A stretch of DNA of 64,000 nt, taken from contig CAWCYD010000003.1 of NCBI GenBank assembly GCA_963799775.1, forward strand, positions 384,001 through 448,000, given 5' to 3'. Shown here piece after piece: positions 19,949 to 59,293 of the stretch; the stretch's first letter is position 1, and each line of letters begins with the position of its first letter. Under the pieces are notes generated by a model, which was not told the DNA's origin, ran no database searches, and saw only the letters and a program-made list of their open reading frames with translations. This DNA is from an uncultured archaeon. Lineage in GTDB: Archaea; Thermoproteota; Nitrososphaeria; Nitrososphaerales; Gagatemarchaeaceae. Position numbers and translations under genes: made by a program.

Positions 19949-21091
19949 CTAGCGCGAGGCCTTCCTGACTGCCACGAGGAGCTCTTCGTAACTTGCGTCC
20001 GTCTTCAGTCCGGACGACCCGAAAGGCTGCCGCATCGCCGACCGTCCGGAACCCTCGAGCTCCTCAACGACGCTCTGGAACTTCACTGAAGAGACCTTCT
20101 CCCTCGACGTGATCCTCTCGAGGGAGAACCCGAAAGGAGGGAAGCGGTCGCAAGACTTCAGAGCCTCCATCGCGCGGGCGGCTTCCCTCCACCCTTGAGA
20201 GGAGCAATATCGGAGGGACTCCCCGACCGCCGCCTCGTCCACCAGCTCTCCCAGCCATTGCGGGCCTATCGACCTGGCCTTGCTTCCGCAGCGCTGGCAC
20301 AGAGCGACAGGCGAGGGCGAGAGAGCGTTCTCGTGGCAGCTCGCGCAGGTCACGACGTATCCCAGCTGTCTGATGCACGAATCCGAGGCGGCCGCACCTC
20401 TGGAGCACCTGAAGTAGACGCGCAAGTAGTGGAGCGTAGAGTGCGCAGCCATGGGCTGGAGTCCGATGTCGAGCACCCCGCCCATCCTCGCACAGAACCC
20501 CAAGAGCACCCTGACAGCCGCCTCGTGGGAGAACTCGCTCCTGCTGACCAGCGCGCCGTACCTCCTAAGCGCGACCCTAGGATAGACACCGCACAGGGTC
20601 GCCGTGTCTGTCGCTGTCATGGAGACGATGCCCTGGTCCTGCGCCGCGGTCAGCGCTCCCTGGACATAGGGGGCCGGGGTGCCGAACGGGTCGATGTCCA
20701 CCGCGTCGAACCGCTCCGCCCTCCCAAATCTGGAGCTGAGGTAAGCGCTGGACTCCTCGTGGACCATGGCACACCTTCCCGCCAATCGGTTCACCTTGAC
20801 GTTCTTGGCCGCGATCTTCGCTGAGACCTCGTTGAACTCGACCAGCGTGACCTCGACCTCGGATGTCGCCTCGTTGGCGACGCGCACCCCTCTGGCTCCG
20901 GTCCCAGCCAGCGCGTCCAGGAAGCTTCGAGGCTCTGTCGCCCTCGCGATCGCGACGGAGACGTCTCTGTTTACCCTCGCGGCAGGGTTGAAGAAGGCCG
21001 GGAAAGTCTTCGGCTCTCGGCCACTGAGGCTCTCTTTGGGAACGAAGAGGTCGGTCGAGCCTTCGCGTATGAGCTCGAGCTCCGGGAGCAT
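19949..21091 (-). CDS. trm1: tRNA (guanine26-N2)-dimethyltransferase
   Basis: FFNPAARVNRD, DALAGTGARG, DIDPFGTP, TATDTA. Confidence 0.9.
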   Translation of the reverse strand: MLPELELIREGSTDLFVPKESLSGREPKTFPAFFNPAARVNRDVSVAIARATEPRSFLDALAGTGARGVRVANEATSEVEVTLVEFNEVSAKIAAKNVKVNRLAGRCAMVHEESSAYLSSRFGRAERFDAVDIDPFGTPAPYVQGALTAAQDQGIVSMTATDTATLCGVYPRVALRRYGALVSRSEFSHEAAVRVLLGFCARMGGVLDIGLQPMAAHSTLHYLRVYFRCSRGAAASDSCIRQLGYVVTCASCHENALSPSPVALCQRCGSKARSIGPQWLGELVDEAAVGESLRYCSSQGWREAARAMEALKSCDRFPPFGFSLERITSREKVSSVKFQSVVEELEGSGRSAMRQPFGSSGLKTDASYEELLVAVRKASR

Positions 21092-21152
21092 CGGAGCCTC
21101 GCCGCTCACTGCGAAGCATTTAAGCCCCGTGCGGAGGTTTCGACATGAAAAC

Positions 21153-21698
21153 TTGAGTTCATCCGGAAAGATCTGGCTGGTCACAGGCCCGCCAGGGATA
21201 GGAAAATCCACCCTGGTGGCGAAGGTAGTCTACGCGGTCAGGTCAAGAGGGCATGCGGTGGGAGGATGCCTCACAAGAGAGGTGAGGGTCGGAAGGGAGC
21301 GCACAGGATTCATGCTCATCGACCTCCTTAGCGGCAACGAGGCCGAGCTCGCCTCTGTGAAGGGACTGGGACCGAGGGTCGGCAGATACAGGGTCAACAT
21401 CAAGAACCTATCTGGCCTCGGGGCAAGCTCCCTTCTGAGGGCCGCCGAGCTAGCGGACTTCATCGTGATTGACGAGGTAGGCCCTATGGAGCTCACGAGC
21501 CCCGAGTTCAGGAAAGGCGTGAGCGCCTGCCTCAAGACAGCCAAGCCCATGCTCATCGTGCTCCACGAGAGCATGAAAGACCCGTTGATGACGGAGATCA
21601 CCGGGCAGACGAACAAGGAGCTCGTCGAGCTGACGCTCCACAACAGGGAGAAGATGGCGAATGAGCTTCCGGCGGAGATTTCATCAAGTCTGGGGTAA
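21153..21698 (+). CDS. Nucleoside-triphosphatase (NTPase_1/THEP1)
   Basis: LVTGPPGIGKST, IVIDEVGPME. Confidence 0.88.
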   Translation: MSSSGKIWLVTGPPGIGKSTLVAKVVYAVRSRGHAVGGCLTREVRVGRERTGFMLIDLLSGNEAELASVKGLGPRVGRYRVNIKNLSGLGASSLLRAAELADFIVIDEVGPMELTSPEFRKGVSACLKTAKPMLIVLHESMKDPLMTEITGQTNKELVELTLHNREKMANELPAEISSSLG

Positions 21699-21814
21699 GG
21701 CGCCTGCGAGACACGCTCGCCGGCGTCGCGGCATGCGGTCGGTTTTACGGCTCGTCGCATCTGCGCTGAAATAGGTCAGGATCATTTCTATTCACGAAGA
21801 CCTCCGGCAAAGAC

Positions 21815-22820
21815 TTGGCGCAGATCGTAGGACTCTGGCTGGCAGAAGGCGATCACAAGACATTACGTGAGGTCACCTTCACCAACAATGACTCGAAACT
21901 CATAACCTTCTTTCACCACGTTCTTTGGGAGCACTTTACGCCACGTAACCCGCCAAGAGTCTACGTCTACCGACCGTCCAAGGATGCAACCTTCGACCGT
22001 CCGGTAATGGGCGCAGTTTACAGGTATTACATTGACCGACGGGCCAATGTGCCGTATTACATCTACAGAGTCTCTGGAGTTGAATTAGCGAGAATCTTGA
22101 GAAGAACCTCGCAGACGATATGCGCTGATTCGTCCAATTATCGGGGAATACTTCAGGGGTTCTTTGCCGGAGAAGGCAATATCAAGGAAACCATTGCTCA
22201 TTATTCGAGAGTGCTTAGAATCGCTCAAGGTAAGAGACTCGCTATTCTTGAGCGGATCTTGCGCTTTTTGAGTGTGAAGTTCAGCTACAAGCTGTCAGAA
22301 AGCTCCTACGTAATTTCGGGTCGAGACAACTTGGAAAAGCTATGGAGCATCGGCGTAAGCGAACTGCATTCGAAGAAGCACGCAAAATTTGCTGCTATGA
22401 TGTCCTCGTACCAACAATATCATTATCGACGAGGCTATCTCAGTGCTCGAATATTAGAGATCCTTTCGTTGCCCTTGACTACTCGCCAAATTGCCACCCG
22501 AGTGAATCGGGGTAAATCAAGGGTAAATCATCTATTGACTGCGCTCTGCCGGAAAGGCGAAGTCGAAATGTTCAAGGTTAGAAGCTCATATTATTGGGTA
22601 AGGAGCGACCAACAATGCGTAATAATCTCTAAGGAGAAGTCCACGATTCTAGAAGCGCTCTCCTGTCCTCGGCGACTATCGGAGATCGCCAAGGGCCGTC
22701 AACCGCACCGAGAAGTCAGTTTCCCATAGACTTGCAGAGTTGAACAGGCTCGGTCTTGTCATGAAAGCAAACTCTAATTGGCGAGCAATCGAGGTATCGA
22801 AGCGGGTGATTGTCAAATAA
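21815..22820 (+). CDS. Double-motif LAGLIDADG homing endonuclease with C-terminal HTH regions (frameshift ~22693; true start probably slightly upstream)
   Basis: Motifs DLAQIVGLWLAEGD and YRGILQGFFAGEGNI; visibly more AT-rich than flanks; corrected frame ends EVSKRVIVK* at 22820. Confidence 0.78.
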
Positions 22821-23496
22821 CGCTCATCGGTGGGGTCGATGAGGCCGGGAGAGAGCACGACGAAAAGTCGTCTCCCCGCGAGGCTGCGTACTCGGCCCGC
22901 TCGCGGTCGCAGGCGTCTCAATAGAATCATCTAGGCTGCAGGAACTCTCTGAGCTGGGGGTCAAGGACTCGAAGCTCCTCTCACCCAGCCAGCGGGACTC
23001 CCTCTACCCGGAGATCAAGAGAATCTGCAAGGGCGTCGAAGTCTCCTGCATCCCCCCGAAGATGATCGACCGATACGTCAGCAGGGGCAAGAAGTACAGG
23101 CGCCTCAACTACCTCGAGACCATCCACATGGCGAAGGTCATCGACGCGCTCTGCGTCGACGAGGTATTCGTCGACGCTCCGGACGTCAACCCGCCGAGGT
23201 TCACGATGGAGCTCGCCGAGCTGCTCACCACGACCCCACGGATAGTCGCCGAGCACAAGGCGGACGTCAACTACGCGGTCGTCTCCGCCGCCTCGATAAT
23301 CGCGAAGGTGGAGAGGGACCTCGAGGTCGCTGCGCTCAGGGAGATCCACGGCGACTTCGGCTCAGGCTACCCCTCGGACCCTGACACGATAGCCTTCCTG
23401 GAATCATGGGTGAAGAGGCAGAGCTCGCAGCCCGAGTTCGCCCGCAAGAGCTGGAAGACGTGGGAGAGGATAGTCCCGCTCCCCACCCTCGACTAG
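22820..23496 (+). CDS. rnhB: Ribonuclease HII, spliced: join(22820-22851, 22881-23496), ACG start
   Basis: Spliced frame reads (M)LIGGVDEAGRGCVLGPLAVAG...GVKDSKLL...AEHKADVNYAVVSAASIIAKVERD...GSGYPSD; 648 nt, in frame. Confidence 0.88.
22852..22880 (+). other. 29-nt bulge-helix-bulge mRNA intron in rnhB
   Basis: Central helix CGGG(22846-49)/CCCG(22875-78), bulges AGA(22850-52) and CGA(22879-81), intron stem GAG.ACGAC-GAAAA-GTCGT.CTC; cutting after the 2nd nt of each bulge gives GGG AG|A GGC = G-R-G. Confidence 0.85.
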
Positions 23497-24170
23497 TCAG
23501 CTCAGAAGCGCCGAGATCAGCGCGTGGTCCTTGTCGAACGGATGGAGGTCGACCACGCGCTCGACGACGAAACCAGCGTCCCTCAGCTTCTGGGCCTCTT
23601 CCTTGAAGACCAGCGAGGGCTCCTTCAGCTGGTCTATGCTCCTCGCTTTGACGATGAGCAGGATCCTGCCGCCCTTTCTGAGATGCCTCTTCGCGTTCGT
23701 TATCGCGATCTCGGTCTGGTCCCTCTGCGCGATGTCGCAGTAGAGCACGTCCATCTTCCCGAAGCCACCGAAGCTCCCGGTCTCCCTTGCGTCAGAGATG
23801 AAGGGTATGACATTGGGCCTCGCCTTCGCCACCTTCTCGATGAACTCTCTGCCCACGCGGGCGGAGAGCTCCACCCCAACAACCATCCCGCCCTCGCCGA
23901 CGATGTCCGAGACGTGCGAGATTGTCGTGCCCGTCGAGGCACCGAGATATACGGCACCTTGTCCCCGATGCTTATGACATCGGGAGAGACCGCGCCCTTG
24001 AGTATGCCCCCCGCGAGCTTGCTGCGGTAGGGGTCCCATGCCCTGTACTCGCTGCCGTGTATCTTGACGAGGTCTTCGTCATACGCCGTGCGGCCTGGGA
24101 CGAGATTTCTTGTGAAAACCTTTCTCCTTCCCGGCTCCCGGCCTTCCATAACGAGGACGTTGCTTGCCAT
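23497..24170 (-). CDS. flpA: Fibrillarin-like rRNA/tRNA 2'-O-methyltransferase, frameshift ~23955
   Basis: EYRAWDPYRSKLA, YLGASTGTTISHVSD, YCDIAQRDQ. Confidence 0.9.
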
Positions 24171-25315
24171 CGCGCCGGAACTCTCTTCGTTGTTCGGGTC
24201 GGGGCGCGGGTGGTTCCTTATACTTTATCCTGATTTCATTTAGTCTCTTCTCCAACAGGCCCGTGAGCTCCCCCGCCTTCTCTCCCCTGAAGTAGTCGAT
24301 CCTCGCTGCGATGGCAATCTTGTTCGCCAACGTGCGCGCGATCTTCCCTCTCTGCCATTTGGGCGCCGTGTGGACCGCCTCGTGCTGGAAGAGTATCCCG
24401 TGCTTCGGAGGCCTGGAGCCTGTCCTTATCGCCCTGAAGAGCGCCTTCTCAGCCCCCAGGACCTGGATCGTGCTGGCCGGAAGCCTGGCCATGCGCTCCA
24501 GCCCTCCCGCCCTGGCGATCAGCCTCGCCCCTATCGTCGCCCCCGCGACCGCGGTGACGTTGGGGGCGATCTTGTTCATCGTAGACTCCACCGTCTCGGC
24601 GAGCCTCTCCCTCTCCGCTGCTGTCTTGACCGCGAGCTCGGCCAGACCGACGATGCGGCGCATGTCCTTGTCTGAGATGCTGCCCCCCTTCGAGCGCTCG
24701 GCAGCGAGCACGATCGCCTCGGCCTTCTTGTCGCCGAACCCTTGCTTCTCGAGGGTCTCCTTGTCGAAGGTGCCCCGCTTTCCGATGTCTATGATCAGCT
24801 TGGCCAGCGCCAAGTTGTCTTTCAGGATGTCTTGAAGCTCAGGGAAATGCAGGCTGTACCACTCCATGGTCCTCTCGGTCGTGATGTTGAGGAACCGGTC
24901 CAGCTCGTCGAGGGCCTGTATCGCGTTGACGAGATGTATGGTCCTCTTTGGAGGAGGCCTCGCTCACCTCCTTCTCCGCCGCGGCTATGGCCCGCGCGCG
25001 AGTGCTCTCAAACGCGCTCTTGGCGTCGGACGCCAGACCCGCCTTTGCAATGATTTCGAACTTCCGCGAGTCCAGCTCGTCGCGCTCGTCGTCCGTTATA
25101 ATCGAGGTCTCGATCCCGAACTCTTCCATCTTCTCCTTCGCGGGCAGGCTCGACACCTTCAGCCGCCCGATGCCCTTCTTCTTGACCCCCTCCGCCACCC
25201 TGCGCAGGTAATCCTCTGCTCCGCCCTCCTTGCCCGACTTTTCCGAGAGGATGATGTCGTCGCCCTGCACGACCACGAAGCCGGCTTCGGTCTCGTAGAG
25301 GATGGGCTCGGCCAA
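24079..25315 (-). CDS. nop5: C/D box sRNP protein Nop5/Nop56, frameshift ~24940
   Basis: EWYSLHFPEL, PASTIQVLGAEKALF, PPKHGILFQH, GKIARTLA. Confidence 0.9.
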
Positions 25316-25403
25316 GAAAAATTCGATTGATGCACCCTCAGGGCACGGATAAAGGTTGTCGCCAATGCGCATTGCTGCTTATTAGCGGAACCCACTTCTC
25401 CAG

Positions 25404-25986
25404 ATGTTGGAGTACCGCTGCGAGTACTGCGGGGCAGTCTTCGCGGGAAAGAGGCAAGTTATCGGTCACAAGGTAGGCAAACACATCAAAGTAACCTCGT
25501 TTGCAGAACGCGAAGATCAAGCTCGATGGGTTGACTGAACGTCAGATAGGATACATCGCGGCTTTCTTGGACGGCGAAGGCGGCATTCAAATCACTAGGA
25601 CGACAAGAAAGGACAGGGAATACACCATAGCCCTCCATCCTTGCGTCTACTTTACCAACACGAATCGCGAAGTAATCGAGACGTTGAGGAGGTGGTTCTC
25701 CGCAGGATGTGTCGTGACCGCCAAGGCAAACAAGGAAGGCCACAAGCCAACCCATGTCCTTCACATCACAGGGACGAGGAACATCGTCTCCCTCCTTACA
25801 GTCGTCAGGCCATGCCTCATAGTCAAAGCGAAACAGGCCGACACCATGTTACAATTTTGCAAGAGCCGCCTCACTCACAACGCCGGAAAGGACCGAAGAT
25901 ATACCGAAGAGGAATTATCATTATATATGACTCTCAAAGCACTGAACGAGAGAGGTGTAAAGAAACGCCAACACACGGAAGTCTAA
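25404..25986 (+). CDS. Single-motif LAGLIDADG homing endonuclease, probably with an N-terminal C2H2 zinc finger (1-nt shift ~25500)
   Basis: ATG 25404 reads MLEYRCEYCGAVFAGKRQVIGHKVGKH; after an extra T the frame continues to QIGYIAAFLDGEGGI...FTNTN...LIVKAKQA. Confidence 0.8.
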
Positions 25987-26148
25987 CGAAGGCGGGGAAA
26001 TGCCAAATGGCACCCTTTAGTCCGCGGTCAGACCCCCAAGATAGAAGGCAAACCGCACAAGGGTAAGATCCCCAAAGTGAGGAACACCCGGACCTTCGTC
26101 AAGAGATTCACACTAAAGAGAAAGCCCGGACAGAATTGGAGACTTTAG
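25965..26148 (+). CDS. rps30e: 30S ribosomal protein S30e, spliced: join(25965-25999, 26019-26148), ACG start
   Basis: Spliced product (M)[53 protein letters not shown], 54 aa; divergent from nop5. Confidence 0.9.
26000..26018 (+). other. 19-nt bulge-helix-bulge mRNA intron in rps30e
   Basis: Central helix GGGG(25994-97)/CCCT(26013-16), bulges AAA(25998-26000) and TTA(26017-19), intron hairpin TGCC-AAAT-GGCA, exon stem GGC/GTC; splicing gives GGG AA|A GTC = G-K-V. Confidence 0.88.
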
Positions 26149-27765
26149 ACTCCGATTCTTTCTCGGACGGAGAGGCCGCGGCTACAGAGTGGCTAGTCGC
26201 CTCTATCCTCTCCGGCGAGATCTCTTCCCGCCAGCAACTGGAGAGAGCAAAGAAAGTCGCCGCCCGGGATTTTCACCTCGGCCGCTTTCTTACCAACTCC
26301 GAGATTTACCTCGCCCTCGAGCCCAACGATCGCGAGGGAAGGAAGGAGCTGTTCCGGGTCCATCCTCGCCGGAGCGCCTCCGGAATAGTCATCGTGACCG
26401 TCTTCACGGCGCCAGCAAACTGCCCTCACGGGACGTGCACCTACTGCCCGGGCGGGCCGAGCGTCGGCACACCACAGAGCTACGTGCCCGACGGTCCCAG
26501 CATGCGCGGGGCCCGGAGCGTCGGCTTCGACCCCTATCTGCAGGCGCAGAAGATGCTGAAGAAGTACCTCGACAGAGGACATGAGGCGTCAAAGGTCGAG
26601 CTGATGGTCGAGGGAGTGCACCTTCCTCGCCATGCCGAGAGAATACCAGGAGTGGTTCCTCAAGCGGGCCTTCGACGGCCTGAACTGCGCCCCGTCTCCG
26701 TCTCCTTCCCTAGAGCAGGCGCACTCGACGAACGAGTCCGCAGACTATAGGTCCGTTGGATTGACGATCGAGACCAAGCCCGACTGGTGCAGACCTGAGC
26801 ACGTGGACATGCTCCTCTCATATGGGGTGACCAAGGTGGAGATAGGGGTCCAAGCGCTTCGAGACGAGATCCTGACAAGGAGCAACCGCGGCCACGGCGT
26901 CCAGGACACGCTCGATGCGTTCCAGGTGGCGAGGGACGCCGGCCTGAAGGTCACTGCCCACATGATGCCTGGCCTTCCGGGCTCGAACCCCGAGGACGAC
27001 CTAGCCGACCTGCTCAGGCTCTTCGAGGACGACGCCTTGCGCCCGGACATGATGAAGCTCTATCCTACCACGGTCGTGAAGGGGACGGCCCTCGCGAGGA
27101 TGTGCGAGGCGGGCCGGTACACGCCCTATGACCTTGAGACGGTGGTGAACCTGATCGCGGAGATGAAAGTCCACGTCCCCGCCTGGCACCGGATAATGAG
27201 GATCCAGAGAGAGATACCAGAGGCTGACATAGCGGCGGGAAGCAAGGCTGGCAACCTCCGGGAGATGGTCTTGGCCAAGCTGCGGGCAGACGGGCACACA
27301 TGCGGTTGCATCAGGTGCAGGGAGGTGGCGATGGACTCGCCTTCAGACCTAGACGAGGCGTCGCAGGGCGAGCTGGTCATCCGGAACCAGAGCTACCGCG
27401 CCTCAGGGGGGACGGAAGTCTTCTGCACGTACGAGTTCAGCAACTCCAGGAAACTGGCTGGTTTCATCCGCATGCGGGCTCCCTCGGCCGAGGCACACAG
27501 GCCCGAGATGGCAGACCATCAAGTGTGCATAGTCCGCGAGCTCAAGGTCTACGGGCGCGTCGTCTCGGTCGGATCCAGGGACGCTGCTGCCTTCCAGCAC
27601 CGAGGGCTCGGTCACTCGCTGCTCGAGGAGATGGAAGAGGAGGCGAGGCGAAGCTTCGACGCCCGCAGGTTGCTCGTGATGAGCGCCGTTGGAACCAGGA
27701 ACTACTACAGGAAGTTCGGGTACGAGAGGTCGGGGCCTTACATGGCAAAGGCGCTCGCGTCCTAA
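26136..27765 (+). CDS. elp3: Elp3 radical-SAM/GNAT tRNA uridine(34) acetyltransferase, frameshift ~26618
   Basis: CPHGTCTYCPGG, TIETKPD, AHMMPGLPG, IVRELKVYG, FQHRGLG. Confidence 0.92.
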
Positions 27766-29512: not shown

Positions 29513-30833
29513 ATGGCAGCGCCTTCTGGATATCGGGGACCTTCAGCCAAATTTCTAGAGAAGGCTGGGGTGACGATCGGGGACGTCCTAGAGGTCACCA
29601 CAGGAGACCAGAAGATCAAGGGGACCCTCGTGCCCCGATACGAGCACGACGACGACAGACACATCGTGATCAAGCTCAGGAGCGGGTACAACGTCGGCAT
29701 CGCCGTCGAGAAGATCACCGGCGTCGCCCGGATCGCCAAGGGAGAGGCCCCGAGGTTCGTCGCCCCCCCAAGCGCCGTCTCGAGCGACCTGCCCAAGGTC
29801 TCGATCCTCGGGACCGGCGGGACGATCGCGAGCCGTGTCGACTACAGGACCGGAGCGGTTCACCCTGCGACCACTTCGGAGGAGCTATACTCGCTCTTCC
29901 CCGAGCTCTCAGAGATCGCATCTATCACGCCTGAGATAGTCCTGAGCGTCTACAGCGAGAACCTCGAGCCTTCGCACTGGGAGGTCATAGCGAAGAAGGT
30001 CTCCGATGTCGTCTCCAAGGGAGTCTCCGGGGTGATCTTGACGATGGGGACGGACACGATGGGATACACCGCCGCGGGCCTGAGCTTCGCCCTCAGGGGG
30101 CTGCCGGTCCCCCTCTTCATAGTGGGGTCGCAAAGGTCGTCTGACAGGCCCTCGTCGGACGCGTTCCTGAACCTCATAGGCGCGGCGAACCTAGCCGTGA
30201 AGGCCGACTTTTCAGGCGTGTTCGTCGCCATGCACGCGGACTCGAGCGACGAGAGGATCGCCATCCATCGGGGCACCAGAGTCCGGAAGAACCACACCAG
30301 CTCGAGAGACGCTTTCGAGTCGATGGGCGTGGAGCCGGTGGGGTACTGGTCTCGTCTCGGATTCATTCCAACGGCTCACGACCCGCCTCCACCCCGAGGC
30401 AAGCCGAGCAGCTTCGTCGCCATGCCCAAGTTCGACCAGCGCGCGGCGCTCGTGAAGTTCTATCCTTCGATGTCGACCGGGTACCTCGAGGCCTTGCTGG
30501 GGTCGGGCCTGAAGGGGGTCGTCTTCGAGGGGACAGGCCTGGGTCACATCAACAGCAAGAACATCGAAGTGGTGAAGCGGTTCATCGACGATGGCGGCGT
30601 GGCTTGCATGACGTCGCAATGCCTCTGGGGGAGGGTCGACATGAACGTCTACGACACCGGAAGGGGCACTCCTCAGGGCCGGAGTCCTGAGCCTGGAAGA
30701 CACGCTCCCGGAGGCGGCCGTCGCGAAGCTGATGTGGGCGCTGGCCAACTCGCAGTCGAAGGACGAGGTCCAGAAGATGATGCAGACGAACCTGGCCGGG
30801 GAGATGAGCGCCAGGAGCATCCTGAGGGAGTAG
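29513..30833 (+). CDS. gatD: Glutamyl-tRNA(Gln) amidotransferase subunit D, frameshift ~30663
   Basis: IKLRSGYNVG, GTGGTIASRVDYRTGAV, GTDTM, GSQRSSDRPSSD. Confidence 0.92.
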
Positions 30834-30839
30834 AGCCGC

Positions 30840-32756
30840 ATGGAGCGCGCACCCTCTCAGGCCAGCCTGCCGTTCGACCCGGGCTCGTGCAATCTCAGGG
30901 TCGGATTGGAGATCCATCAGCAGCTAGCCACAAGCACCAAGCTGTTCTGTCCTTGTCCTCCGATGAAATCCGACGAGCTGCCTCTCTCCTTCGAGAGGAG
31001 GCTCAGGCCCACGCAGAGCGAGCTGGGACAGATCGACCCGGCCGCCGTGTTCGAGTTCAACAAGGGGAGGGCGAACGTCTACAGGGCCAACCCAGAGTCC
31101 TCATGCCTGGTCGAGGCCGACGAGGAGCCCCCGCACCCGCCGAATGCAGACGCTATCGAGACGGCTCTGATAATGGCCCATGTTCTGGGGTCGAGTGCTG
31201 TGGACGAGGTCCATGTCATGCGAAAGATAGTGATCGACGGCTCGAACACCTCGGGCTTCCAGCGGACCGCCATCATCGCGCTGGGTGGAGCACTCCGAGT
31301 GGGGCCTTCCACCGTCGGAGTACAGACGATCACCGTCGAGGAGGACTCCTCGAGGGTCCTCAAGGAGACCTCTCAGGCCAGGGAGTACGCCCTCGACAGG
31401 CTGGGAGTCCCGCTGATTGAGATCGCCCTGGACCACGTCGTGGGCGTGCCTGAACAGGTGGAGGCGATAGCCCTCACGCTCGGAAGGTCGTTGAGGTCCA
31501 CGGGGAGGGTAGCGAGAGGTCAGGGAACGATTCGACAAGACCTCAACGTCTCGTTGCTCGGTGGTCAGGTCGTGGAGGTGAAGGGAGTGCAGAAGCTGAA
31601 CCTCCTCGCCAAGGTCGTGCGCTACGAGGCCATCCGGCAGATGGGCATGGTCAAGATAGCGGAGGAGATCAAGAGAAGAGGCCTCGTCGAGGCGAGGTGC
31701 ACCTCGAAGGATGCGCGGGCAGCGCTTGAGAAGACAGAGTCCCCCATCCTGAGGCGTCTCCTGCAAAAGGGCGGAGCGGTGGAGTGCATCTCGGTCCCGA
31801 AGTTCGCGGGCCTCTTCGGGTACGAGCCGTTCCCTGGAATCCGATTGGGCAAGGAGCTCGCGGAGATCGCGAGGACGAACGGGCTTGGAGGCGTGATCCA
31901 CTCGGACGAGTTTGCGAAGCAGAGGATAGCGGAGAGCGAAGAACGCGCCCTCCGGGCGCTCACTGGATCCGATCAGGATGCGGGGTTGGTGCTGGTCGGA
32001 GGAGAGGCAATCGAGACTGTCGAGACGGTCGTCGCGCTTGTCATCGACCGTGTGAAGATGGCGTCCGTCGGGGTTCTCGGCGAGACCAGGGCTGCGACCG
32101 ACGACGGCGAGACGAGATACCTGAGACCCCGCCCAGGCGCCGCCAGGATGTACCCCGAGACGGACATACCTGAGATAGCCATCACGGAGGAGACGAAGCG
32201 CCGCTTGGCCGCCAAGCTCCCCGTCCCCTGGCAAGAGAGGGTCGCGGAGTACTCGAAGAGATACCAGCTCAGCCAAGAGGCTGCGGTCCAGCTCTTCGAC
32301 TCTGAGTATTCCGGGCTCTTCGAGGAGCTCGCCACGAAGCTGAAACTCGAGCCGTCGGTCATCGCCTCGGTACTCGTCGAGATCCCCGTTCGCCTCTCCC
32401 GCGAAGGGATAGACGAATCCAAGATCACTCCCGAGCTGCTCGCCTCAGCGCTCTGGGCCTTGGACGGGGGAAGGTTCGCAAAGGAAGCCACCATCGAGAT
32501 ACTTCGCACCATCGGCAAGGGCGAGGCCCGTGACGTGGACGAGGCGGCCTCGAAGCTGGGCCTTGCGGGAATGGGAGACGAGGAACTCGCGAAGATCATC
32601 GAAGGCGTGGTTGAGCGGAACCGAGAGCTGATCCGCAACAAAGGAGACCGCGCCTTCAGCGTCCTGATGGGCGAGGTCATGAAGCTCGCGAGGGGGAGGG
32701 TAGACGGACAGAAGGTAAGCAAACTGCTCCATCAAGCCATCGAGCGAGCCAGCTGA
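30840..32756 (+). CDS. gatE: Glutamyl-tRNA(Gln) amidotransferase subunit E
   Basis: VGLEIHQQL, IDGSNTSGFQRT, RPRPGAARMYPETDIP. Confidence 0.95.
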   Translation: MERAPSQASLPFDPGSCNLRVGLEIHQQLATSTKLFCPCPPMKSDELPLSFERRLRPTQSELGQIDPAAVFEFNKGRANVYRANPESSCLVEADEEPPHPPNADAIETALIMAHVLGSSAVDEVHVMRKIVIDGSNTSGFQRTAIIALGGALRVGPSTVGVQTITVEEDSSRVLKETSQAREYALDRLGVPLIEIALDHVVGVPEQVEAIALTLGRSLRSTGRVARGQGTIRQDLNVSLLGGQVVEVKGVQKLNLLAKVVRYEAIRQMGMVKIAEEIKRRGLVEARCTSKDARAALEKTESPILRRLLQKGGAVECISVPKFAGLFGYEPFPGIRLGKELAEIARTNGLGGVIHSDEFAKQRIAESEERALRALTGSDQDAGLVLVGGEAIETVETVVALVIDRVKMASVGVLGETRAATDDGETRYLRPRPGAARMYPETDIPEIAITEETKRRLAAKLPVPWQERVAEYSKRYQLSQEAAVQLFDSEYSGLFEELATKLKLEPSVIASVLVEIPVRLSREGIDESKITPELLASALWALDGGRFAKEATIEILRTIGKGEARDVDEAASKLGLAGMGDEELAKIIEGVVERNRELIRNKGDRAFSVLMGEVMKLARGRVDGQKVSKLLHQAIERAS

Positions 32757-56226: not shown

Positions 56227-57738
56227 GTGCTTCTCTTGCAAGGTAAAGTCGTAGTCATAGGTCTCGATGCGGCAGACGCCAACCTCACGAGGCGCCTCAT
56301 GGGCGAAGGAAGGATGCCACGCCTTGCTTCAGTGAGGGATGAGGGACATCTCTCCAGCCTGAAATCCACCATCCCTCCGCAGACGGCACCTGCGTGGACC
56401 TCGATGACGACAGGGGTCAACCCGGGCAAGCACGGGATCTACTACTTCTACAACTTCTCGACCACTCCCATATCGATAGTCAACGCGTCGCACACGTCTA
56501 CCCCAAGAATCTGGGACTACGTCGGGGCGCTGGGGCAGAGGTCGGTGGTGGTGAACGTGCCGGTCACCTATCCCGCGCAGGAGATGGTAGGGTCGATGAT
56601 ATCCGGGATACCTCCGTGGTACTTTGACTCGAGGTCGGTCTATCCCTCGAAGCTTTTCGAGGACTTGAGGGCGCGTGACTACACGATAGAGACACCGATG
56701 AGCAGAGGTCTGGAGAGCAGACCCGACGAGCTGGTGGACCGGCTCGTCGCGACAGAGGAGAAGAGGGTCGATCTCTTCATCGATCTCCTCAAAAGAGACG
56801 AATGGTCTTTCGCGATGGTGGTCATCACGGCTCTCGACAGGGTCCAGCACAAGATAGTCGGGAAGGGAGAGGCAGCCGATTCTGCGCTCGCCCGCTGCTA
56901 TGGAGAGATCGACAGGCTAGCGGGGAATGTGATCGACTCCATCGGGAAGGACGTCAACTACCTCATAACCTCCGATCACGGGTTCAACGAGAGACCTCTC
57001 GCCTTCTACCCCAACTCCTGGCTGTACTCCCAAGGATTGTTGAGGCGCAAATCGTCGCTACGCTACCGCCTCACAAGGTTCGCGCACGATATCTTCGATG
57101 GCCACCTGCTCTGGCTGCCTCAGAGCATCACGAAACGCTTCCAGGGCGCGGCGACCTCTATCAACAGCATAGATGCGGTGGACCTTGGCTCCTCGAGGGC
57201 GTTCGTCCCCGGGACCGACGGGGTATTGATAACCAGATCAGAGCAAGACAGGAAGAGGATACTCTCCGGCCTCTCGGAGCTGAAGGACGAATCTGGAGTA
57301 CGGATATGCCAGGCATATCCAAGGGAAGAGGTCTACAGTGGAGACAAACTCTCTTCGGCGCCAGACGTCCTGATCGTGCCGAGGGACGACGTCAACATCT
57401 GCACCGACCCCTTCAGCCCGACCGTACTCTCGAGGTCTGGAGGCTCCAGCAAAGGCAACCATTCTTCGGAGGGAATCCTGATCGCCGCAGGTCCGGGAAT
57501 CAAAAAGTCCGGTGAGTTCGAGGCGTCGGTGGAGGACGTCGCCCCGACCTGCCTCGTCCTGTTGGGGATCCGTCCATCTTCGAACATGGATGGGCGACCC
57601 CTCCAAGAGATGCTGGTTGAGCCCGAGACCAAGTCCCTGACTTCGGCAGAGGTCGTGGGCGAGTCCCGAGCGTACGCCTTCTCTGAGAAAGAAGAAAAGC
57701 AAGTGATGGAGAACCTGAGGCGACTTGGCTACGCCTGA
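56227..57738 (+). CDS. Alkaline-phosphatase superfamily (type I phosphodiesterase/nucleotide pyrophosphatase)
   Basis: VIGLDAA, TAPAWTSMTTGVNPGKHG, TSDHGF, LRRLGY. Confidence 0.88.
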   Translation: MLLLQGKVVVIGLDAADANLTRRLMGEGRMPRLASVRDEGHLSSLKSTIPPQTAPAWTSMTTGVNPGKHGIYYFYNFSTTPISIVNASHTSTPRIWDYVGALGQRSVVVNVPVTYPAQEMVGSMISGIPPWYFDSRSVYPSKLFEDLRARDYTIETPMSRGLESRPDELVDRLVATEEKRVDLFIDLLKRDEWSFAMVVITALDRVQHKIVGKGEAADSALARCYGEIDRLAGNVIDSIGKDVNYLITSDHGFNERPLAFYPNSWLYSQGLLRRKSSLRYRLTRFAHDIFDGHLLWLPQSITKRFQGAATSINSIDAVDLGSSRAFVPGTDGVLITRSEQDRKRILSGLSELKDESGVRICQAYPREEVYSGDKLSSAPDVLIVPRDDVNICTDPFSPTVLSRSGGSSKGNHSSEGILIAAGPGIKKSGEFEASVEDVAPTCLVLLGIRPSSNMDGRPLQEMLVEPETKSLTSAEVVGESRAYAFSEKEEKQVMENLRRLGYA

Positions 57739-59293
57739 CCGGGCTCCCACGGAGCTTCTTTCCCAGCCGGCGCAGGAGAGCCCGGTCGCCTCCGAGCGGG
57801 AGAGACACATAGCGACGGGTATCCGCTCCCTGACAATCCAGAACGGCGTCACAAGCGTCCTCGGCTTTGTCTTCTTGGCGCTGCTTCTCCGCCTTCTCTC
57901 GCCAACGGAGTACGGGCTCTATTCGGCTGCTCTCCTCGTGACGACGATCGGCTCCTCGATCGCCTCGTTCGGCCTACCCTTCGCAGCGACCAGGTTCGTC
58001 GCGTACCTCTCGCGAGATGCTCGCCAGCTGAGCGTCGCGTCGAGGTCGATAGTCGTCCTCTCGATCGCTTTCTCGACCATCGCAACGATGGTCTTCGTCG
58101 CCCTCTCGCCCTCTATCTCGATGTACTTCACAAAGGACACGGACTCCGCGTGGATCTTCGCTGCCTCGGGCGCGTGGCTCTTCTCTAACACCATCTCGAG
58201 CATATTCCAGGGGCTTGTCCAAGGGATGAGGAGGTACGAGTCTCTCGCAAAGATCCTAATCGTCTCCAACATCGCGATCGTCGCCGTCACCGTGCTCGGG
58301 CTGCTGGAGTTCGACAGTGTAATCGTCCCCATAGTCGCCTGGGTCGTCTATGGTGCCGCCATCACGGCCTGCTCGCTTGCGGTGACCCGAAGGCCGCTCC
58401 TCGCAGCCCGTCCCACCGAGGGCGCGGGCAAGGTGGTGAACCAGGTGCTCAGGTATTCGCTGCCCCTCGGCATCGCGGGGATAGTGACCGTCGCGACGGG
58501 TGCCGCCGACCCGATAGTGGTCGGAGGATTCCTCCCGGCAGCTCAGCTCGGAGCGTACTACGCTGCGATCGCAATCTCGGGTGGGCTTGGAGTGGTCTTG
58601 TTCACCCCTCTCAACACAGCCTTCTTCCCGGAGAGCTCCCGTTACGCAGACGACCCGACGAGGCTCTCCAAAGGCGTGAGGCTGGCGTTCAGGTACACAT
58701 CCCTGGCGCTGATCCCCGTCTCATTCGCCCTCGTGGGGCTCTCTACACAGATGATCAAGCTCTTCGCCGGGGAGAACCCGAGCTACCTAGTCGCGAACCC
58801 TTCGCTACAGGTGATGTCGGGCCTTTTCCTCTTCGTGGCCATGCAGGGCATCCTCACATCCCTCCTCCTCTCGCTGGGGAAGACAACCCAGGTGATGGTG
58901 ATAGGCATAGTGACGGTCTCCTTGGACCTCGCGCTCTCTCTTCTCTTGGTACCCAATTTCGGCCTTCTGGGCGCGGCGACGAGCAGGAGCCTGGTGGACA
59001 TCGCGGGCTTCTTGATGGCGCTAGGGTTGACGAAGAACTACCTCGCGGGAGTGGTCGACCTTGCGTTCCACGTGAAGATCTTCACCGCTTCGGGGATCAT
59101 GCTCGCCGTGCTCCAATCGCTCTCCAAGTTCGTCTCCCACCGTCCCTTGACGCTCCTGCCGTATGCCCTGATAGGGGTAGCAGTGCTCCTCGTCTCAGCC
59201 AAAGCTTTGCACATCTTGACGGAACAGGACAAGCGTTACCTCGAACACTTCATGCCTCCAGGCATGGGCAAGCTGATGCGCTGGCTTCTATGA
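57725..59293 (+). CDS. Oligosaccharide flippase (Wzx/MOP family)
   Basis: Many TM segments; RLLSPTEYGLY, LLVPNFGLLGAA. Confidence 0.85.
   Translation: MATPDRAPTELLSQPAQESPVASERERHIATGIRSLTIQNGVTSVLGFVFLALLLRLLSPTEYGLYSAALLVTTIGSSIASFGLPFAATRFVAYLSRDARQLSVASRSIVVLSIAFSTIATMVFVALSPSISMYFTKDTDSAWIFAASGAWLFSNTISSIFQGLVQGMRRYESLAKILIVSNIAIVAVTVLGLLEFDSVIVPIVAWVVYGAAITACSLAVTRRPLLAARPTEGAGKVVNQVLRYSLPLGIAGIVTVATGAADPIVVGGFLPAAQLGAYYAAIAISGGLGVVLFTPLNTAFFPESSRYADDPTRLSKGVRLAFRYTSLALIPVSFALVGLSTQMIKLFAGENPSYLVANPSLQVMSGLFLFVAMQGILTSLLLSLGKTTQVMVIGIVTVSLDLALSLLLVPNFGLLGAATSRSLVDIAGFLMALGLTKNYLAGVVDLAFHVKIFTASGIMLAVLQSLSKFVSHRPLTLLPYALIGVAVLLVSAKALHILTEQDKRYLEHFMPPGMGKLMRWLL

Follow-up and report, generated by a model that had tools for sequence, protein, structure and literature searches.

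How a ribosomal protein can be made from a gene whose frame is broken at the twelfth codon is the question raised by this locus. In the 64,000-nucleotide stretch of DNA analysed here (the window; the introns, exons, promoter elements and endonuclease genes described below lie on its plus strand), the two halves of the N-terminal region of S30e stand in different frames on either side of an insert, the letters across it being ...ACG CCA ACA CAC GGA AGT CTA ACG AAG GCG GGG AA [ATGCCAAATGGCACCCTTT] A GTC CGC GGT CAG.... An earlier note on this DNA had proposed that the insert is a 19-nt intron of the bulge-helix-bulge (BHB) type, and both the change of frame and the fold it described were confirmed. 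The minimum-energy fold of 25991..26022 is an exact BHB, with exon stem GGC/GUC (25991-25993/26020-26022), central helix GGGG/CCCU (25994-25997/26013-26016), bulges AAA and UUA (25998-26000 and 26017-26019) and intron hairpin UGCC-AAAU-GGCA (26001-26012), that is, a 4-bp helix between two 3-nt bulges on opposite strands with stems flanking. Cutting after the second base of each bulge removes 26000..26018, which splits the Lys12 codon as AA|A, and restores an uninterrupted rps30e exactly, from exon 1 (25965..25999) and exon 2 (26019..26148 including the stop codon; Pfam PF04758 positions 12-57). When deletions of all lengths from 13 to 34 nt (1 mod 3) were scanned from starts at 25990-26011, the 19-nt deletion of 26000-26018, or the equivalent 26001-26019, was the sole one to give AGKVRG and a 54-codon frame. 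The predicted spliced junction is GCGGGGAA|AGTCCGCG and the peptide across it AGKVR. The earlier description of the product as a normal 54-residue S30e stands as to length and fails as to "normal", the frame opening on ACG with no ATG.

The motif by itself is not beyond chance. Its folding z-score is -1.25, and BHBs of equal grade number 8 on one strand of the window and 5 on the other, while three shuffles contain 2, 7 and 6. The insert rises above chance because its cuts coincide with the frame-restoring deletion and because the same insert, with covarying stems, occurs in 31 of 70 loci of the host's Nitrososphaerota family. We take this family to be the one commonly known as UBA183 or group I.1c, whose members live in soil and peat and do not oxidise ammonia; the host genome comprises 2.47 Mb in three contigs, 82% complete and with 59% G+C. 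A profile search with exon 2 found rps30e once each in 74 of 97 family genomes, and 70 loci were examined, leaving out G023 and G097, in which contig ends cut the gene, and G090 and G110; the outgroup set was all 21 matching genomes of other families. The gene is uninterrupted in 21/21 of the latter. Within the family, 13 loci are uninterrupted, 18 carry only the insert seen in the window (site 2), 26 only an insert at a further position (site 1) and 13 both.

In this comparison of related genomes for a split S30e, of the kind proposed earlier, the site-2 insert interrupts the same codon in all 31 loci, is 19 or 20 nt long and spans six genera, and beyond the family sample it is present in L218 (19 nt) and L232 (22 nt). 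Cuts placed by the BHB rule yield the conserved N-terminus in 91/91 loci, including all 31 with site 2 and all 39 with site 1, and restore the frame exactly though insert lengths vary (19 and 20 nt at site 2; 31, 32 and 46 nt at site 1). All four pairs of the central helix form in 30 of the 31 site-2 loci, and the intron stem is at least 4 bp in all. For covariation 32 sequences were aligned (the 31 family loci and L218; 29 distinct); 99.1% of 319 structure cells are paired and 62 cells have changed on both sides in a compensatory manner, a value reached by 0/500 shuffles, and slid controls pair 34-54%. The 3' bases of the intron track synonymous exon changes in the central helix, the pair 7-24 occurring as GC in 17 sequences, CG in 6, UG in 5 and AU in 1. 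It is the structure of the site-2 intron that is conserved, not its sequence. Exon 2 is under purifying selection among the 31 carriers (pN 0.10 against pS 0.63), which, together with the single copy of rps30e in the host genome, speaks for splicing.

The machinery for such splicing is encoded by the host. One EndA subunit gene (alpha) bears the His/Tyr/Lys motifs and another (beta) has no catalytic motifs, and this combination of one catalytic and one non-catalytic subunit points to an enzyme of the (alpha-beta)2 type; RtcB is present, many host tRNA introns lie at odd positions, and cbf5 is uninterrupted. The proposal of a BHB intron in rps30e is strongly supported by the comparison as a whole (31/70 loci, covariation, EndA and RtcB), and we consider it very probable that the insert is a protein-spliced mRNA intron. 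Short and of BHB type, the intron itself has no coding content and breaks a coding sequence inside a conserved codon. A second, uninterrupted rps30e, which the earlier note had held would count against the intron, was looked for and not found in the host genome at its 82% completeness or in other carriers, including the single-contig G007. The warning that S30e could be wrongly scored as absent was well founded: among 51 matching genomes, S30e falls under the Pfam S30 cut-off in 12/12 with site 2 (15.8-21.6 bits against 27) and the other 39 pass. The ACG start, the second rps30e site, the upstream LAGLIDADG gene and the RNase HII intron, described below, were absent from that note.

Site 1 is a second rps30e intron, within the Leu7 codon, in 39/70 family loci (e.g., L032, L041, L043), and would map to window position 25983/25984. 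It is 31-32 nt long, with one of 46 nt, and its exon stem is just 1 bp. Thirteen genomes carry both introns within 36 coding bases. Site 1 is as common as site 2, and no endonuclease partner was found for it. By eye, many site-1 alleles (e.g., L032, L033, L035) have a GGAGG before the start whose complement, CCTCC, occurs at the intron's 3' end, so that unspliced site-1 RNA could hide its own ribosome-binding site.

The start of the gene is unusual in its own right. The frame opens on ACG (25965-25967), which follows the Shine-Dalgarno-like GAGGTG (25952..25957) at a distance of 7 nt; this motif lies within the upstream endonuclease gene and has similar counterparts in relatives. Further upstream, a TATA-like box (25920..25928) that forms Leu-Tyr codons near the C-terminus of the endonuclease is the probable rps30e promoter, and is retained in relatives that lost the rest of the endonuclease gene; for both elements the function is predicted. 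The Met position is ACG in 28/31 family loci without site 1, intron-less ones included, the remainder having ATG, TCG or GTT, and ATA and CTG occur there too. In other families the position is mostly ATG. Site-1 alleles have an ATG or TTG start and a AAAGATTAA-type promoter in 39/39, and intron-less ATG alleles make up 1/70 in the family. We read ACG as a near-cognate start of rps30e; a term search of the archaeal initiation review PMC7531240 found no passage on ACG initiation. In the predicted fold, GGUGU of the Shine-Dalgarno region pairs with ACGCC over the ACG start (25954-25969). An ATG would weaken this hairpin, which may bear on the retention of ACG.

Directly upstream lies a free-standing gene (25404..25986) coding for a C2H2-like zinc finger and a single LAGLIDADG domain by Pfam. 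It overlaps exon 1 by 22 nt and ends at 25986, 14 nt before the intron, so that, unlike in rRNA-intron endonucleases, the ORF lies outside the intron. Its counterparts in relatives are single ORFs of some 190-200 residues; in the window an additional base near 25490-25494, which falls between the finger and the nuclease domain, divides it into ORFs 25404-25538 and 25501-25986. The catalytic motif FLDGEGG is invariant in 8/8 aligned rows, the HMM matches I-MsoI, I-Vdi141I and I-CreI, and the structural model (pLDDT 83) finds I-CreI with Foldseek at E 6e-9. By profile and predicted structure, the upstream gene is a LAGLIDADG homing endonuclease of I-CreI-type fold. Its core is under purifying selection (pN/pS about 0.13-0.38). 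Outside the host's family, a search of 400 further genomes from the phylum at E 1e-25 yielded no member of the endonuclease family; the related lineage represented by L232 has one intact copy together with the 22-nt intron. A palindrome round the Lys12/Val13 junction in some alleles was spotted post hoc and is not used as evidence for the target.

The endonuclease and the site-2 intron go together to a degree that calls for explanation. The gene lies upstream of 13/18 loci with site 2 only, 1/13 intron-less loci, 0/39 loci bearing site 1 and 0/21 loci of other families. A second sample of 30 metagenome loci was chosen by the endonuclease alone; four end within the gene and some contigs are near-duplicates. 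In all 26 loci long enough, rps30e follows directly behind the endonuclease, one of them ending at the junction, and of the 25 informative loci 18 have the site-2 intron (two of these also site 1, one with a weak stem) and 7 have none. In the endonuclease tree (35 rows), one clade has the intron in 26/26 informative rows and its sister clade is without it in 8/8 (SH-aLRT 99), one change being enough. Members of this intron-less sister clade have GGA AAR GTW AGR at the junction in 8/8, against 11/38 endonuclease-free empty alleles; the Fisher p values obtained overstate the recoding, as the contrast rests on one clade split and not on eight. In these alleles, synonymous changes at the junction seem to shield the sister clade in the way that the intron would shield its carriers. 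Several observations weigh against homing. No endonuclease is detectable at 18/31 site-2 family loci, many endonuclease-free alleles with an apparently open junction persist, the metagenome loci L324 and L338 combine the endonuclease with both introns and an ATG, and the window's own endonuclease gene is frameshifted, be it in reality or through an error of an assembly rich in such shifts. It should also be considered that, with 14 nt between endonuclease stop and intron, co-occurrence is expected under any allele exchange.

Traces of the endonuclease gene were looked for where it is gone. Alleles L004, L006, L007, L008, L015 and L130, which have no endonuclease, show a short footprint of its C-terminal codons round the TATA-like box, and the same footprint is seen in the site-2-only alleles L155, L156 and L161, likewise without endonuclease. 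This is as expected from decay of the endonuclease gene with the promoter left behind. The HMM detected no endonuclease remnants upstream of intron-less alleles; the nucleotide footprint is present in 6/12 such alleles, by a pattern written after seeing the data.

Some 3 kb away, the same arrangement occurs at the gene for RNase HII. We compared the host (G000) with the complete relative G030 in a blind scan for insertions of at least 12 nt; 3,843 alignments gave 2,212 candidates, 31 of which passed the BHB filter, the reach of the scan being introns not shared with G030 in genes that G030 has. On inspection four were convincing, namely those of rps30e and rnhB in the host and introns of 39 and 594 nt in G030, the latter two presumably in the rRNA operon, to go by rRNA motifs. 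The rnhB intron (22852..22880, 29 nt) splits the Arg codon AG|A of DEAGRG, between exon 1 (22817..22851), with a probable ATA start aligning with ATG in G093, and exon 2 (22881..23496), an open frame of 204 codons matching Pfam RNase_HII; the predicted spliced junction is GCCGGGAG|AGGCTGCG. Of 81 family genomes with rnhB, 71 loci were examined and 70 parsed (G025 did not; G066 has two copies). An intron of 26-30 nt occupies the same site in 16/70, with 4/4 central pairs in all 16. Directly upstream of rnhB in the window lies a second free-standing LAGLIDADG-like gene (21815..22820), with an HTH-like C-terminal part and a weak Pfam match (LAGLIDADG_3, E 0.0027), in which the frame shifts near 22700 in the host assembly. 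Such a gene stands beside 12/16 intron-bearing and 0/54 intron-less loci, three of the intron-less having less than 600 nt upstream. The two introns occur independently across 63 genomes: both in 6, rps30e site 2 only in 22, rnhB only in 8 and neither in 27. Paired with an endonuclease of its own, the rnhB intron adds an independent example of this layout to the window. In most endonuclease-bearing loci ATA, the apparent start of rnhB, overlaps the endonuclease TAA stop (22817-22819), and one relative has at this position an ATG overlapping TGA; it may be that near-cognate starts are common in the host's family. The G066 bin has two rnhB copies (L254, L274), one with a 30-nt intron and one without, and is either a mixed bin or a case of coexisting alleles.

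Further free-standing LAGLIDADG frames were noted in the host genome. Four on contig C3 (814785-815435, 752053-752376, 1424790-1425092 and 1815153-1816139) lie beside tRNA genes, namely tRNA-Arg, tRNA-Cys and tRNA-Ala with introns called by ARAGORN and a tRNA-like stretch recognised by eye, in a layout like that at rps30e and rnhB. Two LAGLIDADG-like frames lie beside protein genes (C3:209313-209984 and 57697-58653); behind the former, no intron was seen in the first 50 codons of the following gene. Many LAGLIDADG matches fall within long host ORFs, including C3:449036-454342 just beyond the window, and are probably inteins; to judge by their sequences, the host ORFs encode family-B polymerase, MCM, initiation factors and oxidoreductases.

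The distribution of introns and endonucleases was set against a host tree, for which the RNase HII protein tree (67 rows) was used; this marker is itself a neighbour gene, and parsimony on it does not distinguish gain from loss. Genus g1 needs one state change. Site 2 needs 17 (27/61 carriers; shuffled mean 20.0, with 30/300 shuffles as low), and the rps30e endonuclease, with 13 carriers, needs 12, the value for shuffled labels being 12.0. In independent pairs, each endonuclease changes with its own intron (rps30e 7.0 same vs 0.5 opposite; rnhB 6.0 vs 0; median p 0.03 each) and shows no co-variation with the intron of the other gene (p 1 and 0.6). Close relatives differ (G003/G021, G063/G064, G104/G105), and between close sisters the intron, the start codon and the type of promoter change jointly, which points to allele replacement. 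The endonuclease tree roughly follows host genera, so that part of the pattern can be accounted for by long vertical inheritance, the gene being repeatedly lost or replaced, and the tree is no proof of transfer between genera.

Taken together, we think the best explanation overall is an EndA-spliced mRNA intron spread by collaborative homing, and we hold this to be likely. In this scheme the promoter of rps30e would lie within the 3' end of the endonuclease gene, the intron and its two flanking exons would fold into the BHB in the transcript, the two-subunit tRNA-splicing endonuclease EndA would cut after the second base of each bulge, RtcB would join the exons, and the ribosome would initiate at ACG to give the 54-residue S30e. 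When alleles meet, the LAGLIDADG enzyme would cut intron-less rps30e at or near the Lys12/Val13 junction, repair would copy endonuclease gene, promoter and intron as one, and the carrier would be protected, its target being split by the intron. Later the endonuclease gene would decay or be replaced, leaving orphan introns and promoter footprints. That the intron spreads and persists in this way, with the upstream enzyme as partner, strikes us as probable on the allele comparisons, if with slightly less assurance.

Other explanations deserve to be weighed against this one. The intron might be real and spliced and yet be a passenger or a host shield, the enzyme cutting elsewhere, at the promoter or start, with the intron in the co-conversion tract, or the intron having come first as protection and the enzyme later. 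Start codon and promoter type are indeed tied to haplotype (ATG or TTG in 39/39 site-1 alleles, ACG in 28/31 others), and linkage by itself can yield co-occurrence. However, 6/25 informative endonuclease loci have ATG or GTG starts (the ATG of L330 being taken one codon further upstream), which weakens the idea that the start codon acts as the shield; the strict clade-level tie to site 2, with recoding at that very junction in the sister clade, also speaks against this account, which we regard as unlikely, though the most serious of the alternatives. Less probable still is that the intron descends vertically with repeated loss, or spreads at the RNA level through reverse splicing by EndA and RtcB or transposition of tRNA introns, perhaps being retained as a brake on S30e that acts through splicing, with the endonuclease an unrelated neighbour. 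Intron subtypes do partly follow genera, the two rps30e sites are 16 nt apart, the host has its many odd tRNA introns, and passages of Yokobori 2009 (PMC2738675) discuss a regulatory role and cDNA-mediated loss for the cbf5 intron. Against this, the one pattern tried found no look-alike of the rps30e intron elsewhere in the host genome, the independent-pairs test and its cross-controls tie each endonuclease to its own intron, the same layout recurs at rnhB, and sister taxa differ in promoter type too, which intron loss does not explain.

The remaining two alternatives appear far weaker than collaborative homing of a spliced intron. That nothing is spliced, the broken frame being due to ribosomal frameshifting or hopping, a pseudogene or an assembly artefact, would gain from the frequency of one-base shifts in the host assembly (split events: 186 of +1 and 51 of -1, compared with 28 and 11 in G030). 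Since such shifts abound there (about 240 split events), the other broken genes of the window, fibrillarin, Nop5, ELP3 and GatD, each over two frames (23497-25372, 26136-27765, 29513-31420), are probably assembly errors; as introns these breaks were rejected, the blind scan having found no BHB insertion there. The rps30e insert, however, recurs at this very position in 30 further genomes of the family and in 18 contigs from metagenomes, and an artefact is ruled out by the number of independent assemblies; inserts of 19, 20 and 22 nt would need different shifts and are all removed by the same BHB cuts, which rules out a single frameshift mechanism; and compensatory changes and purifying selection on exon 2 argue the same way, leaving this reading very improbable. 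We give almost no credence to an endonuclease housed in a second, large BHB intron splitting the start codon as AT|G, on the pattern of archaeal rRNA introns. It would account for a gene without ATG and for an endonuclease ORF that overlaps exon 1, but in intron-less relatives ACG follows a TATA-like box at a distance of about 40 nt, which is too little space for such an intron, ATA, CTG, TCG and GTT also occur at the start position, and no matching 5' BHB half was seen by eye at 25380-25500. On the grounds of space and start triplets this candidate was rejected.

An intron in the cbf5 pre-mRNA of Desulfurococcales and Sulfolobales was reportedly described by Watanabe in 2002. The rps30e and rnhB introns resemble it as short, ORF-less BHBs in coding regions, splitting a conserved codon, patchy in distribution and found in hosts with a hetero-oligomeric EndA. 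They differ in host genes and lineage, in not lying at the cbf5 catalytic Asp codon, in having two sites within one 54-codon gene and in the adjacent free-standing endonuclease; moreover, splicing of cbf5 has been shown, whereas that of rps30e is deduced from sequence comparison. In the parts of Yokobori 2009 used here (PMC2738675), cbf5 introns are 16-44 nt, too short to encode a nuclease and of unclear origin, and Schwarz 2020 (PMC7714728), in the passages drawn upon, names a single archaeal BHB intron reported beyond tRNA and rRNA, that of cbf5, to which it adds its own 5' UTR case. That case, Haloferax HVO_1309, has EndA acting on an mRNA, as proposed here, but is untranslated, with no reading frame dependent on it (PMC7714728, same passages). 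Within the sections consulted of PMC3082918, PMC12397907, PMC13149111, PMC6125680 and the preprint 10.64898/2026.10.13.758758 there is no coding-region BHB intron beyond citations of cbf5. The literature searched, mostly open-access and supplements aside, holds nothing on an intron in S30e or archaeal rnhB, nor on a free-standing endonuclease paired with a BHB intron.

The enzymes of phage collaborative homing are HNH, GIY-YIG or Endo VII-like, and in intronless homing immunity comes from sequence change at the target. Collaborative homing is described in phages (T3/T7-like phages, a cyanophage, ICP1) in the portions of Barth 2023 cited here (PMC10448857), and, according to those portions, a free-standing endonuclease by an ORF-less intron is inherited with it, cleavage being predicted at the insertion site. 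The rps30e locus shares the free-standing endonuclease and the ORF-less intron inherited together. It departs from the described cases, with their self-splicing group I ribozyme in phage, in having a 19-nt BHB, probably spliced by the host, in a cellular, chromosomal archaeal mRNA and a LAGLIDADG enzyme; Rfam returned no match at E 0.1 across 21000-27000. The excerpts of Edgell 2010 (PMC2988022) relevant here report that T4 endonuclease genes carry promoters of downstream host genes, favouring retention, and the seg/mob systems resemble ours in the free-standing gene by an essential target with a downstream promoter in the endonuclease ORF. Those are of phage, of other enzyme families and without an intron, the last of which fits the intron-less sister clade. 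The single-motif LAGLIDADG fold is that of I-Vdi141I (PDB 3e54), I-CreI and I-MsoI, and the splicing chemistry would be that of archaeal rRNA BHB introns; unlike in the rRNA-intron enzymes, the gene stands outside the intron, upstream of the host gene, and encodes an N-terminal C2H2-like finger. What is new is thus the joining of two known kinds, a cbf5-like mRNA intron in a ribosomal protein gene and a phage-like collaborative-homing layout.

For the family, the consequences begin with the ribosome. Splicing is needed for a ribosomal protein in 57/70 members, in 13 of them at two introns, and for RNase HII at 16/70 loci; where S30e requires splicing, ribosome supply is tied to the tRNA-splicing enzyme. 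The failure of S30e to reach the Pfam cut-off in all 12 site-2 carriers scored is a systematic annotation error, and the loci suggest that essential genes of archaea can have near-cognate starts such as ACG, ATA and CTG. With somewhat more reserve than for the rps30e locus itself, we lean towards a general picture in which free-standing LAGLIDADG endonucleases are the vehicle that brings tiny tRNA-type introns into essential archaeal protein genes, EndA would remove the intron, the intron would shield the target, the two sister clades would represent two shields, the intron and synonymous recoding, and rival haplotypes with the second intron would replace one another between close relatives. 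With one enzyme and three defined DNA substrates, the way in which ORF-less introns spread in archaea can be tested concretely and at low cost. If this is true, spliced mRNA introns would be a recurrent and overlooked feature of archaeal genomes and not an oddity of cbf5, the endonuclease would supply both mobility and the promoter of the downstream gene, and collaborative homing would explain the entry of tiny introns into archaeal protein genes.
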